Virus record (IMG/VR): IMGVR_UViG_2778261009_000004
Length of the DNA stretch: 28,707 nt
Origin: a virus
Lineage: Duplodnaviria; Heunggongvirae; Uroviricota; Caudoviricetes
Direction: 5' to 3' (one strand)
In this document: piece after piece, positions 215 through 28,707 of the stretch
Layout of the letters: every line of letters starts with the position of its first letter
Numbering within the stretch: position 1 is the first letter of the stretch
Notes under the pieces: generated by a model
The model's input: only the letters and a program-made list of their open reading frames with translations
The model's database searches: none
What the model was told of the DNA's origin: nothing
Made by a program: the position numbers and the translations under genes

Positions 215-3616
<3,402 letters not shown>

Positions 3617-24976: not shown

Positions 24977-26065
24977 TTACGCCAGTACGCCAGTTGCCAG
25001 CGCGCGATCGATAAAACGAAATATCAGCTCCAGTTGGGAGCCATACTTCTCTTCAAATGCCACTGTATCCGTATGCAGCTCGTTGTGATGCTTTCTGCAC
25101 AAAGGCAACACAAAGAGATCATGTGCTTTTGTTCCCATTCCGCCCTGCCCGTGACCAATCAGATGATGCGGATCGTCGGCTGGCATACCGCAGCAAGCAC
25201 ACGGCTGTGTCTTAACCCAACGAGTGTATTTCTCCTTAACCCAGCGGCGACGTTTAGGCAGCTTCATGAAAGATTCCGGAGACTCTGGATCAACGGTGAT
25301 GCTTACCACCGTCTTTTCCTGTGGTGGTTTTTGTTGCTGTTGGGCGTAAGGCAACGGTGCAAGATTTTTTGTGCGTTGTTTCAATATGCTGGTGGCGGTC
25401 TGCTCTCCCGGTACGATGTCGCTTTCGCGGTACACCGAGCAGATTTTTTCCGCTGGTAATCCCAGCGAACGACGCGATACAGCCTCAGGTAGTGCATCTA
25501 CCACCTGATTGCAGACCGCCCACCAGGATAATTCAGCCAAAGATAATTCCCGCTCCTGCGTACCGCTTATTGCGTGACGGATGACGTCAATCACCCATGC
25601 TGTCAGATTTTGTTGAGCAAGCAGCTCCAGTGATTCCGATGTCTGGTCACGCAGATGGTTGTCGCAGTGCCAGCACAACACCATTGCGCCGGTACCATAA
25701 CGGTGAATGACTGTTTCAGTGTGATGGTAATCGCCATTAGGCCACTGGCAGGATGTAACATGACGTAATAGCCAGTCAGACAATGCGCCAACGCCGCCAG
25801 CAGCACGAATCACCCGTTCGTTACTAAAAAACGGCAGCAATGTTTTGTCTTCCGCCAGCGGCTGGCGAACGGCAGGAACGACTCCGGATGGCAGATTACG
25901 CATGCTTTTTGGTTCCGGTTCCACCAGCACTCGAGGATTATGAAATATCTGTATGGATTCACGGCCCGGCTTAAGGACCACCAGCCCAAGCTCAGGCACC
26001 AGAACAGGTCTAAGTAATACCCGCACGTTACCTCCAGATCCGTTGCTGGAAAGTGCGGGACGCAC
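24977..26065 (-). CDS. DUF968 protein (YdfU-like) with C-terminal HNH-like Cys/His motif
   Basis: 362-aa ORF; C-terminal ...CACCGMPADDPHHLIGHGQGGMGTKAHDLFVLPLCRKHHNELH resembles an HNH/His-Me finger. True start may be an internal Met (for example about 25903). Confidence 0.6.
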   Translation of the reverse strand: MRPALSSNGSGGNVRVLLRPVLVPELGLVVLKPGRESIQIFHNPRVLVEPEPKSMRNLPSGVVPAVRQPLAEDKTLLPFFSNERVIRAAGGVGALSDWLLRHVTSCQWPNGDYHHTETVIHRYGTGAMVLCWHCDNHLRDQTSESLELLAQQNLTAWVIDVIRHAISGTQERELSLAELSWWAVCNQVVDALPEAVSRRSLGLPAEKICSVYRESDIVPGEQTATSILKQRTKNLAPLPYAQQQQKPPQEKTVVSITVDPESPESFMKLPKRRRWVKEKYTRWVKTQPCACCGMPADDPHHLIGHGQGGMGTKAHDLFVLPLCRKHHNELHTDTVAFEEKYGSQLELIFRFIDRALATGVLA

Positions 26066-26306
26066 GTGGTGGGCGTTCGGAATAAGGCAGCCTGACAGAG
26101 ATTATCCAGTGCCGATAGTCGAGACTGAGAGCTTTCTTAACCTCGAACCCGCGCCTGCGGTAAGAATGAATCAGCCATTCGGCCTGTTCTGCAGTGCATG
26201 GAGGGTGCTGGAACCATTCAGACTTGAATGCGTGAGAATACCGCCCGTGCGTGCAGGCAAGAACGGGCGAATTATCAGAATTGTAATATTTTACGTTGCG
26301 TGCCAT
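26028..26306 (-). CDS. Hypothetical protein
   Basis: 92-aa ORF upstream of, and overlapping, the DUF968 ORF; no family recognised. Confidence 0.35.
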   Translation of the reverse strand: MARNVKYYNSDNSPVLACTHGRYSHAFKSEWFQHPPCTAEQAEWLIHSYRRRGFEVKKALSLDYRHWIISVRLPYSERPPRASRTFQQRIWR

Positions 26307-26372
26307 CGGTTTTCTCCGGTGGCACGGTGTTACTCAGCGGGAGTTCAGCCCCGTGCAAGATTGTAGATGAGT

Positions 26373-26624
26373 TTATTCTTCTGCAAAAGCTGAAAAGCCT
26401 GCTTTTATTCCGATCTCTTTCAGTGCCTGTAATGAAGTGACAAACTCACCTTCGCGCAAGATAAATCCGTCCGTGACCCGAGCATCCACAAAATTAATTA
26501 ACGCAGCTCCATTCTTTCGCAAACACATAATGCGGTAATGACTAACAAGATTTCCATTTTCAACGCACACAGCATAGAGGCCATCTTCACAAAAAATTTT
26601 ACGCAGTTCTTCGATGTTCATCAT
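26373..26624 (-). CDS. rem: Rem-like protein (Qin prophage)
   Basis: 83-aa ORF MMNIEELRKIFCEDGLYAVCVENG... in the position (between hokD and DUF968) and of the length of E. coli rem, from memory. Confidence 0.6.
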   Translation of the reverse strand: MMNIEELRKIFCEDGLYAVCVENGNLVSHYRIMCLRKNGAALINFVDARVTDGFILREGEFVTSLQALKEIGIKAGFSAFAEE

Positions 26625-26754
26625 CAGAATCCTTCCGGATAATTAGCTCTCCCCTTTAAGGGACCATCCCTCTTCTCCCTGCGCGCTACTTAAGTATTTT
26701 TGATTCTATTCCGGCACCGTCCAGAACTTCAAACGCGTTGAAAATAAAAACAAA

Positions 26755-26772
26755 AACCCGCCGAAGCGGGTT
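26755..26772 (-). terminator. Intrinsic terminator of the relB-relE-hokD operon
   Basis: Minus strand AACCCGC-TTCG-GCGGGTT (UUCG loop) followed by TTTTGTTTTTATTTT, about 70 nt after the hokD stop. Confidence 0.6.
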
Positions 26773-26840
26773 AAGTGCGGGTGCGTTGAGGATGCCTGCC
26801 ACATCAGAGGTGGCGAGGGATTTCTCCCTCGCCGGGTCTC

Positions 26841-26996
26841 TTACTCCTCAGGTTCGTAAGCTGTGAAGACAGCGACCTCCGTCTGGCCGGTTCGGATTCG
26901 TACCTCGCAAAGGTCTTTCCTCGTTACCAGTGCCGTCACTATGACGGTTAAACAGATGACGATCAGGGCGATTAACATCGCCTTTTGCTGCTTCAT
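26841..26996 (-). CDS. hokD: Hok-family membrane toxin HokD (RelF)
   Basis: Own translation: MKQQKAMLIALIVICLTVIVTALVTRKDLCEVRIRTGQTEVAVFTAYEPEE (51 aa). Not in the ORF track because it is under 60 aa. Confidence 0.9.
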   Translation of the reverse strand: MKQQKAMLIALIVICLTVIVTALVTRKDLCEVRIRTGQTEVAVFTAYEPEE

Positions 26997-27066
26997 AGCC
27001 TGCTTCTCTGTCAACGCAAAGCAGAAGTGTCACCTTCGGTGCGAAACAGAGATGTCATGCTTTGGT

Positions 27067-27354
27067 TCAGAGAATGCGTTTGACCGCCTCGCTATATACT
27101 TCCGAGCGTTCTCTTTTCCCAACAGAAATCACGAAAACGACAACTTTCTCGTCTATAACCTGGTATACAAGGCGATAGCCTGAAGACCGGAGCTTAATCT
27201 TGTAACAATCAGGCATACCACGGAGCTTGTTTGCTTCAATCCGGGGTGACTCAAGTACTTCAACCAGCTTCTTTTTCAACTGTTCACGTACCGTCGAGCC
27301 CAGCTTTCGCCATTCCTTTAGTGCCCGCTCGTCAAAATCCAGAAAATACGCCAT
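27067..27354 (-). CDS. relE: mRNA interferase toxin RelE
   Basis: 95 aa, MAYFLDFDERALKEWRKLGSTVREQLKKKLVEVLESPRIEANKLRGMPDCYKIKLRSSGYRLVYQV..., matching E. coli RelE as remembered. Confidence 0.93.
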   Translation of the reverse strand: MAYFLDFDERALKEWRKLGSTVREQLKKKLVEVLESPRIEANKLRGMPDCYKIKLRSSGYRLVYQVIDEKVVVFVISVGKRERSEVYSEAVKRIL

Positions 27355-27593
27355 CAGAGTTCATCCAGCGTCACACGTACTGGCTTAGGATTACGAAGCC
27401 GTTCTTTCACTATCTCCACAAGTTCAGCATCTTCATCACTCAGGAGTGTCTGTTTGAACGGCAAGCGTTCATTGTCAGCGATATACTCGAGCATGAGACG
27501 AAGCGCTTCAGAAGGAGTTACACCCATTTTTTCAAGCGCGGCGTAAGAACGCGCTTTAAGTTCATCGTCAATACGCAGGTTAATGCTACCCAT
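27354..27593 (-). CDS. relB: Antitoxin RelB
   Basis: 79 aa, MGSINLRIDDELKARSYAALEKMGVTPSEALRLMLEYIADNERLPFKQTLL...; stop overlaps the relE start. Confidence 0.93.
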   Translation of the reverse strand: MGSINLRIDDELKARSYAALEKMGVTPSEALRLMLEYIADNERLPFKQTLLSDEDAELVEIVKERLRNPKPVRVTLDEL

Positions 27594-27604
27594 GTCTTAC
27601 ACCT

Positions 27605-27630
27605 CTTGTAATTACAAATGTCATTACAAG
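27605..27630 (-). promoter_or_regulatory. relBE operator (relO-like) overlapping the relB promoter/leader
   Basis: Perfect 12-bp palindrome TTGTAATTACAA (27606-27617) plus a second half-site ATTACAAG (27623-27630), 12-37 nt upstream of the relB ATG (SD AGAGGTG). Confidence 0.6.
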
Positions 27631-27923
27631 TATCGCACTACAACATGCTTAGGGCAAGTCACGAAGGAAGTCAGAAAGTAGTCGTAAGAACGGTGATCAC
27701 TGTCCGCTTTGTGCCAGGAGCAGCCATTGCTAAGTCCATCCTGTATTGTGCAGGTCAGCTCATTTTTAAAGAGTCCGGCCATCATCTTACTGGTACAGAC
27801 ACCATATACTTTGTGACGGTCAGGCTACATATGCACAACTCAACTTATTCATCTATTTTTTGCTTTAGCATGTCAGTGTTGCTTTCTCGTCGGCGGGTGA
27901 GCGGTGACCTGACCTGTCGATAA
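27618..27923 (+). CDS. Hypothetical protein (possibly YdfV-like)
   Basis: 101-aa ORF between relB and flxA; composition not convincingly protein-like. Kept only because Qin carries a gene of about this length here (from memory). Confidence 0.25.
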   Translation: MSLQVSHYNMLRASHEGSQKVVVRTVITVRFVPGAAIAKSILYCAGQLIFKESGHHLTGTDTIYFVTVRLHMHNSTYSSIFCFSMSVLLSRRRVSGDLTCR

Positions 27924-28075
27924 AGGAACGTAGCACGTTTTATGCAACACCCGCATGCGGCAGAAAATTATTGCCGAACGTTTACCCCTGTCAACAAGCT
28001 TTACTTTCTGAGGCGCGCCAGCCCGCTAGGAAAACAATCTGAACATCAAACAATTAATGACACAAGAAATACGAT

Positions 28076-28102
28076 TAAAGATTTTTTTGTGCATGCCGAT
28101 AG
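28076..28102 (+). promoter_or_regulatory. Sigma-28 (FliA) promoter of flxA
   Basis: TAAA (28076-28079), 15-nt spacer, GCCGATAG (28095-28102), against consensus TAAA-N15-GCCGATAA; about 25 nt upstream of the flxA SD AAGGAGA. Confidence 0.65.
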
Positions 28103-28125
28103 TGCTTTTTTAAAAGGAGAAATCT

Positions 28126-28458
28126 ATGTCTGTCACAATTCAGGGAAATACCTCAACCGTTATTTCAAACAACTCCGCCCCGGAAGGAACATCAGAAATA
28201 GCCAAAATCACAAGACAAATTCAGGTGCTGACTGAAAAGCTTGGGAAAATCTCATCGGAAGAGGGGATGACGACACAGCAGAAAAAAGAAATGGCTGCAT
28301 TGGTACAGAAGCAAATTGAAAGCCTCAGGGCTCAACTGGAGCAGTTGTTAAGGCAGCAGGCAGAGAAAAAGAATGAAGACGCGACAGTTCAGCCTGATAA
28401 AAAAGAAGAGAAAAAAGACGATACAAATACCGCTGGCACCATTGATATTTACGTCTAA
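28126..28458 (+). CDS. flxA: FlxA (FliA-regulated protein)
   Basis: 110 aa, MSVTIQGNTSTVISNNSAPEGTSEIAKITRQIQVLTEKLGK..., coiled-coil, Q/K/E-rich, matching E. coli FlxA as remembered. Confidence 0.85.
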   Translation: MSVTIQGNTSTVISNNSAPEGTSEIAKITRQIQVLTEKLGKISSEEGMTTQQKKEMAALVQKQIESLRAQLEQLLRQQAEKKNEDATVQPDKKEEKKDDTNTAGTIDIYV

Positions 28459-28472
28459 GTGACAGCCGTATT

Positions 28473-28495
28473 GTGGCCCTCATCGGGCCACTTTT
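28473..28495 (+). terminator. Intrinsic terminator of flxA
   Basis: GTGGCCC-TCATC-GGGCCAC followed by TTTT, 15 nt after the flxA stop. Confidence 0.55.
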
Positions 28496-28581
28496 CGCCA
28501 TCAGCCTTTTCTTTAAAGACATATTATCTTTGTATCATTTCTGATAGTTAACATTACAAGATATAAGTAATGGACGCACTC

Positions 28582-28707
28582 TGAACCGCCCCGGGAATCC
28601 TGGAGACTAAACTTCCTGAGAAAGAGGTAAACAGGATGACTAAAAATACTCGTTTTTCCCCCGAAGTCCGTCAACGGGCAGTCCGTATGGTTCTGGAAAG
28701 TCAGGAT
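28582..28707 (+). mobile_element. Left end of an IS3-family insertion sequence (IS629-like), running off the right edge
   Basis: Terminal sequence TGAACCGCCCCGGGAATCCTGGAG...; SD AAAGAGG then ATG 28636 encoding MTKNTRFSPEVRQRAVRMVLESQD, the N-terminus of the IS629/IS3-family OrfA transposase as remembered. Confidence 0.7.
28636..28707 (+). CDS. IS3-family transposase OrfA, N-terminal fragment (truncated by window end)
   Basis: Own translation MTKNTRFSPEVRQRAVRMVLESQD (HTH region). Confidence 0.7.
   Translation, partial: MTKNTRFSPEVRQRAVRMVLESQD

Follow-up and report, generated by a model that had tools for sequence, protein, structure and literature searches.

The left terminus of an IS629-group insertion sequence lies 123 nt downstream of flxA in a Qin-like defective prophage

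The insertion sequences IS629, IS1203 and IS3411 were first described in Shigella sonnei, in E. coli O111:H- and in a citrate-utilisation transposon. IS1203 and IS3411 are isoforms of IS629, the subtypes of which differ from one another by 4-5% (PMC3271280). The copy-out-paste-in pathway by which IS3-family elements transpose has been described (PMC1636345; bioRxiv 10.1101/2023.06.07.543989), as has the -1 frameshift between orfA and orfB (bioRxiv 10.1101/2023.06.07.543989). The mechanistic model for the family is IS911, with its TG-terminated repeats, its orfA/orfB -1 frameshift and its figure-eight and circular forms (PMC1636345; bioRxiv 10.1101/2023.06.07.543989), but this is a different element and its sequence is unrelated to that of the copy described here. 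In that copy the left terminal inverted repeat (IRL), the leader and the beginning of orfA are those of IS629, IS1203 and IS3411, with 95-100% identity over 126 nt to O157:H7 copies and to those given an IS629- or IS1203-family label, and there is no difference in kind. The element itself is already known and is an ordinary feature.

The window (the whole stretch of DNA analysed) is the entire 28,707-bp contig NMAY01000041.1 of draft assembly GCA_002536795.1. Its minus strand carries tail fibre, tape measure and head genes, terminase, lysis genes, the Q antiterminator, ydfU, rem, hokD, relE and relB, and its plus strand carries ydfV and flxA. The window is a Qin-like defective lambdoid prophage, the best complete genomes being 98.3-98.6% identical over 25 kb of it. 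As expected for such a prophage, hokD, relE and relB (26841-27593, minus strand) are intact and identical to K-12-type proteins. An isrK-like Rfam match covering the full length of the model was seen between rem and hokD (26751-26832, minus strand), with a sub-threshold score of 25.7 bits against a gathering score of 50 (E = 0.0075). The 1132-aa allele of the tail-fibre J protein (215-3613, minus strand) was found on a single contig among 153 billion gene positions; the rest of the prophage, unlike J, is 97-98.6% identical to many genomes, and this host-recognition protein is the strain-specific part.

The contig starts inside a lom-like gene, plausibly one of which lambdoid prophages carry repeated copies, and its last 126 nt belong to the IS. 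As it ends within a multicopy IS, the truncation is a repeat-induced assembly break and not biology; both contig ends look like such breaks, so that neither is informative on biology and nothing should be inferred from them about what follows flxA in this strain. The 126-nt overhang is consistent with an assembly k-mer of about 127.

The first-pass annotation had placed the IS at the prophage/host junction, on its early-region side. This does not agree with related Qin-like prophages, in which flxA separates the late-regulatory from the early region, some 10 kb from the prophage end, and is followed on its 3' side by an ISEsa1-like transposase gene and then by DUF977, YdaT, Cro, repressor, dicB, exonuclease, xis and int. 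The flxA module that is common to different prophage contexts reaches to about 260 nt past the flxA stop codon (about L006:6593), and the insertion therefore lies within the module. The ISEsa1-like element next to it seems to occupy about L006:6594-8374. Its gene for a 446-aa transposase, which some strains have in intact form, is often decayed, and the 49-aa ydfW corresponds to the last 49 codons (48/49 identical) of this ISEsa1-like (IS1202-group) transposase (L010:6770-6919, minus strand, compared with L006:6770-8110, minus strand).

The features of the flxA end of the window are as follows.

28126..28458, plus strand: flxA, intact, 110 aa, upstream of the IS (open reading frame; FlxA-like annotation in the matches; PF14282 on an identical protein)
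28473..28495, plus strand: terminator-like hairpin GTGGCCC-TCATC-GGGCCAC followed by TTTT (-17.3 kcal/mol, z = -2.55), a putative terminator
28579..28581, no strand assigned: CTC, the last three target bases before the IS and, for a simple insertion, the predicted 3-bp duplication (empty site GCACTC/CCAATT)
28582..28606, plus strand: IRL, TGAACCGCCCCGGGAATCCTGGAGA, 25 nt, beginning 5'-TG; unique in the window and at the target boundary
28582..28707, plus strand: positions 1-126 of a 1310-bp IS629-group (IS3 family) element, 126/126 identity; ends with the contig
28623..28627, plus strand: AGAGG, Shine-Dalgarno-like, 8 nt before the orfA ATG; a candidate ribosome-binding site read from the sequence
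28636..28707, plus strand: first 24 codons of orfA, MTKNTRFSPEVRQRAVRMVLESQD, by translation the start of an HTH DNA-binding protein

The beginning of the IS had been put at about 28582, and comparison with the empty site fixes it there: on the flxA side, homology breaks exactly between 28581 and 28582. In the alignment the empty site (KSC1031, L004; LC-1302-2020, L002) reads ...GGACGCACTC/CCAATTAGTC... and the window reads ...GGACGCACTC/TGAACCGCCCCGGG..., the slash marking the break; over a longer stretch the uninterrupted sequence is ...AATGGACGCACTC/CCAATTAGTCTATTTAAATCGCC... and that of the window ...AATGGACGCACTC/TGAACCGCCCCGGG.... Past 28581/28582 an uninterrupted sequence would continue as ...CACTCCCAATTAG. 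When positions 28100-28707 were used as a megablast query against 5426 complete E. coli genomes, many 100% matches were obtained, all of them ending at query position 482, which is window position 28581.

The final 126 bases of the window are TGAACCGCCCCGGGAATCCTGGAGACTAAACTTCCTGAGAAAGAGGTAAACAGG followed by ATG ACT AAA..., and consist of the 25-nt IRL, a 29-nt leader with the candidate ribosome-binding site, and 24 orfA codons, the IS copy being read in the direction of flxA. The 25-mer TGAACCGCCCCGGGAATCCTGGAGA has a single match in the window when both strands are searched with up to three mismatches (0 expected from 100 shuffles). The proposed orfA start at 28636 also stands, as its ATG occupies 28636-28638 and opens 24 codons that fill the rest of the window, and the distance from flxA, estimated earlier at about 120 nt, was measured as 123 nt from the stop codon to the IS. 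A promoter/terminator scan found no site inside the IS end, and an Rfam scan of 26000-28707 gave no match in the IS part. A break in homology that falls, to the base, at the terminal TG of an IS is exactly what transposition predicts and is not what a random chimera predicts. The insertion junction is thus real, and 28582-28707 is the left terminus of an IS629-group element.

The insertion is situated 90 nt past the terminator-like hairpin of flxA, in AT-rich non-coding DNA. This hairpin was missed by a simple terminator scan, its T run being only 4 nt long. As it is upstream of the IS, the flxA transcription unit is left intact.

The identity suggested at first reading, an IS3-family element resembling IS629, was upheld by a match of 126/126 to the left end of full-length 1310-bp elements (E = 1e-58). 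The 126 nt are the same as L005:612-737, the start of a full-length copy carried by plasmid p503025_52, and no fewer than 12 further plasmid copies are identical; these identical copies include plasmids from human and chicken isolates. Comparison with labelled copies gave 123/126 for one that PGAP calls 'IS629 family' and 120/126 for one that it calls 'IS1203 family'. The numbers of differences from the window copy over the 126 nt are listed below.

p503025_52 plasmid copy: 0
Z1323CEC0013 copy: 2
LC-1302-2020 copy: 3
55989 copy: 3
FDAARGOS_1260 copy (PGAP 'IS3-like element IS629 family'): 3
copies of two O157:H7 strains: 5 (121/126 identical)
CREC-544 copy (PGAP 'IS3-like element IS1203 family'): 6
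E2865 copy: 6

The variant in the window ends …CAGGAT, giving D (Asp) as OrfA residue 24, and is common on plasmids, whereas the O157:H7 variant ends …CAGGGC and gives G. The 24-aa OrfA fragment is identical (24/24) to residues 1-24 of the relative's 108-aa OrfA. Searched by itself it gave Pfam HTH_Tnp_1 (PF01527) with E = 8e-4 and 20 bits, against a cutoff of 24.1 bits, and no match in NCBIfam. Judged by its sequence, the element belongs to the IS629 group, comprising the IS629, IS1203 and IS3411 isoforms, 126 nt being too short for the assignment of a named isoform.

What lies beyond the contig end in an intact element can be seen in the p503025_52 copy (L005:612-1921), which is 1310 bp long and ends ...TCTCCAGGAAACCCGGGGCGGTTCA. 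It encodes a 108-aa OrfA (HTH_Tnp_1, 47.8 bits) and, overlapping it in the -1 frame, a 296-aa OrfB with rve (PF00665, 93.6 bits), HTH_21 and rve_3 domains; the NCBIfam model NF033516, 'IS3 family transposase', is matched with 310.8 bits. The ALIL frameshift-stimulating pseudoknot (RF01497, 121.8 bits) is found at IS positions 336-452. The right repeat of the relatives is TGAACCGCCCCGGGTTTCCTGGAGA, which matches the IRL at 23/25 positions. Nine related copies were sampled, six of them full length and three truncated or interrupted. The six full-length copies differ pairwise at 20-80 of 1310 positions (93.9-98.5% identity), and this divergence of 1.5-6% agrees with the published picture of IS629 subtypes and isoforms (PMC3271280). 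Target duplications of 3-4 bp (TAT, ACC, CCAC) flank three of the six, and none was seen at the other three. Among the shorter copies, those of 55989 and FDAARGOS_1260 are cut at about 740 nt beside a group II intron, and that of O157:H7 strain ECP19-598 is without its C-terminus.

For the window copy, which displays the IRL, a putative ribosome-binding site and the start of orfA, membership of the IS3 family suggests the following mechanism. OrfA, with its HTH domain, would bind DNA. A -1 frameshift in the T run of TAT TTT GCG (TTTTG motif), the probable slip site just 5' of the ALIL pseudoknot, would give the OrfAB DDE transposase. OrfAB would then pair the two repeats and form a single-strand bridge, leading to a circular copy with abutted ends, and integration of this circle into a new target would leave a duplication of 3-4 bp, predicted here to be CTC.

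The insertion site itself is widespread and almost always empty. A 200-nt segment centred on it was found in 1191 complete E. coli genomes and is uninterrupted in 1185, K-12 strains included. It had been suggested that the element might interrupt a neighbouring gene, but no gene is annotated at the insertion point; when the position was looked up in strains without the insertion, as had been advised, the 1185 intact sites showed no annotated feature, and the DNA is non-coding. The same junction was not found in the 5426 complete E. coli genomes, where the 13 that cover at least 80% of the query have the IS elsewhere, nor in GTDB representative genomes or JGI metagenome contigs. It is also absent from the 36 related loci compared: 23 related loci have the empty site and none has the junction. 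A junction-spanning 53-aa ORF on the minus strand, looked up in gene calls, gave no other junction, and loci retrieved by exact match to the flxA, ydfU or rem protein either had the empty site or were without the region. The insertion appears, then, to be private to one strain.

Taken together, it is very likely that 28582-28707 is the left terminus of an IS629-group element that has been transposed into the 3' segment of the flxA module, 123 nt past the stop codon. The element is probably complete, and a simple insertion, with CTC duplicated, is rated slightly better than even; both estimates derive from the frequencies among the copies examined, as the window contains about 10% of the element and the remaining 1184 nt are missing. 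The window has no second repeat, and the right repeat, duplication, frameshift site and DDE domain would lie beyond the contig end. For a simple insertion, the prediction is that ...CCGGGGCGGTTCA would be joined to CTCCCAATTAGTC and that the right end of the IS would be followed by CTCCCAATTAGTCTATTTAAATCGCC.

The most serious alternative to a simple insertion is that the IS end marks a rearrangement junction, arising by IS-mediated deletion or inversion or by recombination between IS copies. The rest of the prophage (the ISEsa1-like element, immunity, replication and xis/int) would then have been removed or relocated, and the DNA past the IS would be unrelated to the flxA 3' region. Several strains offer precedents. 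The IS629-group copy of LC-1302-2020 is not flanked by a duplication and has truncated exonuclease, xis and int immediately after it; that of Z1323CEC0013 (Z1323CEC group) also has no duplication, and host genes come next; in OW1E2 a different IS3-family element, 6 nt away, is followed by ykgL. Other IS3-family elements near flxA are thus mostly at deletion or rearrangement junctions, and half of the full-length copies (3/6) are without a duplication. Against this, the E2865 copy (NZ_AP018808.1, L001:4373-5682), which resembles that of the window in prophage module, orientation and IS group, is a clean insertion of the simple type, flanked by a 3-bp TAT duplication. It is an independent event, situated 14 nt past the flxA stop, inside the terminator region and 108 nt upstream of the window site. 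A rearrangement carries appreciable weight but is less likely than not.

It is less likely that the IS end belongs to a truncated or interrupted left-end remnant without a functional transposase. Such copies with the same left end do exist, in 55989, FDAARGOS_1260 and ECP19-598. Full-length copies predominate in the sample, however, and the absence of any mutation from the 126 nt, as compared with intact copies, suggests that the insertion is recent; furthermore, the break of the contig at this point implies that the downstream sequence is repeated in the genome, as the body of an IS would be.

It is very improbable that the junction was created in assembly, by the chimeric joining of an IS read to the flxA region. 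In favour of such an artefact are the nature of the contig, a draft of the short-read type with a repeat at its end, and the absence of the junction from every other public sequence searched, but a chimeric join would not be expected to fall precisely on the terminal TG of an IS, and independent insertions of the same IS group occur nearby in other strains. Scarcely credible at all is the possibility of a different IS3-family element from outside the IS629 group, which draws on the 126-nt length of the match and on 'IS3 family transposase' being the sole PGAP label on most matching copies, but is opposed by the 95-100% nucleotide identity to IS629- and IS1203-labelled copies and to O157:H7 IS629 copies and by the divergence of the other IS3-family element near the site, that of OW1E2 (IRL 16/25, different OrfA).

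The transposition of an IS629-group element to this site can be set beside the other insertions recorded at flxA. In other strains (L001, L002, L003, L013, L038) the flxA region collects IS, including three independent IS629-group copies (E2865, LC-1302-2020 and the Z1323CEC group), an IS1 inside flxA in chicken isolates, an IS5-like transposase (L013), the IS3-family element of OW1E2 and the resident ISEsa1-like element. The OW1E2 element (L038:3607-4836, about 1230 bp) has the IRL TGAATCGCCACGGGTTTAACAGACAC and an OrfA beginning MSGKRYPEEFK...; it has the same orientation as the window copy, and the ykgL-ykgO-ykgM genes that follow it mark a rearrangement junction.

In uninterrupted genomes the conserved 3' part of the flxA module contains a solitary relic of a left inverted repeat of the IS3 family, TAAATCGCCACGAGTTTAACTGACA (L006:6471-6495), which begins 15 nt rightward of the insertion point; L004 and K-12-like genomes have it too. 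The IRL of the OW1E2 element, itself inserted 6 nt from the window site, agrees with this relic at 22/25 positions, and IS629-group repeats agree at 14-16/25. The idea that the relic is an end of the neighbouring ISEsa1-like element was rejected, as it has no inverted partner beyond the transposase gene of that element and as the shared flxA module (to about L006:6593) contains the relic and stops before the ISEsa1-like element. IS911 can insert next to sequences that resemble its own ends. It is conceivable, if rather unlikely, that IS3-family transposases are guided in the same way beside IS-end-like DNA, making the flxA 3' segment of Qin-like prophages a recurrent micro-hotspot; this idea is post hoc and draws on two events. 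A literature search returned no citable passage on IS3-family insertion beside inverted-repeat-like sequences.

The first-pass annotation had taken IS629 as a hint of an enterohaemorrhagic (EHEC) background. This is not borne out by the distribution of the group. Matches of at least 90% identity to the 126 nt were found in 3606 of 5426 complete E. coli genomes (66%), with a median of 3 places per genome and a maximum of 50, and on 2927 plasmids from more than 10 genera (Escherichia 2622, Shigella 156, Salmonella 81, Klebsiella 43, Enterobacter 14, and others). Two O157:H7 genomes that were sampled have 19 and 25 places. What is typical of O157 is only such abundance, which cannot be gauged from a single contig. 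If the sequence variant, at 5/126 differences from the O157:H7 copies, points in any direction, it is away from O157:H7.

It is therefore unwise to read EHEC ancestry from the finding of an IS629-group element. The biological weight of this insertion is small, since the element is among the commonest IS of E. coli and Shigella and no gene is disrupted on the visible side. Its junction, GGACGCACTC/TGAACCGCC, is a strain-specific marker of the type used in IS-printing and, if it proved to be a deletion junction, it would show a Qin-like prophage decaying still further.
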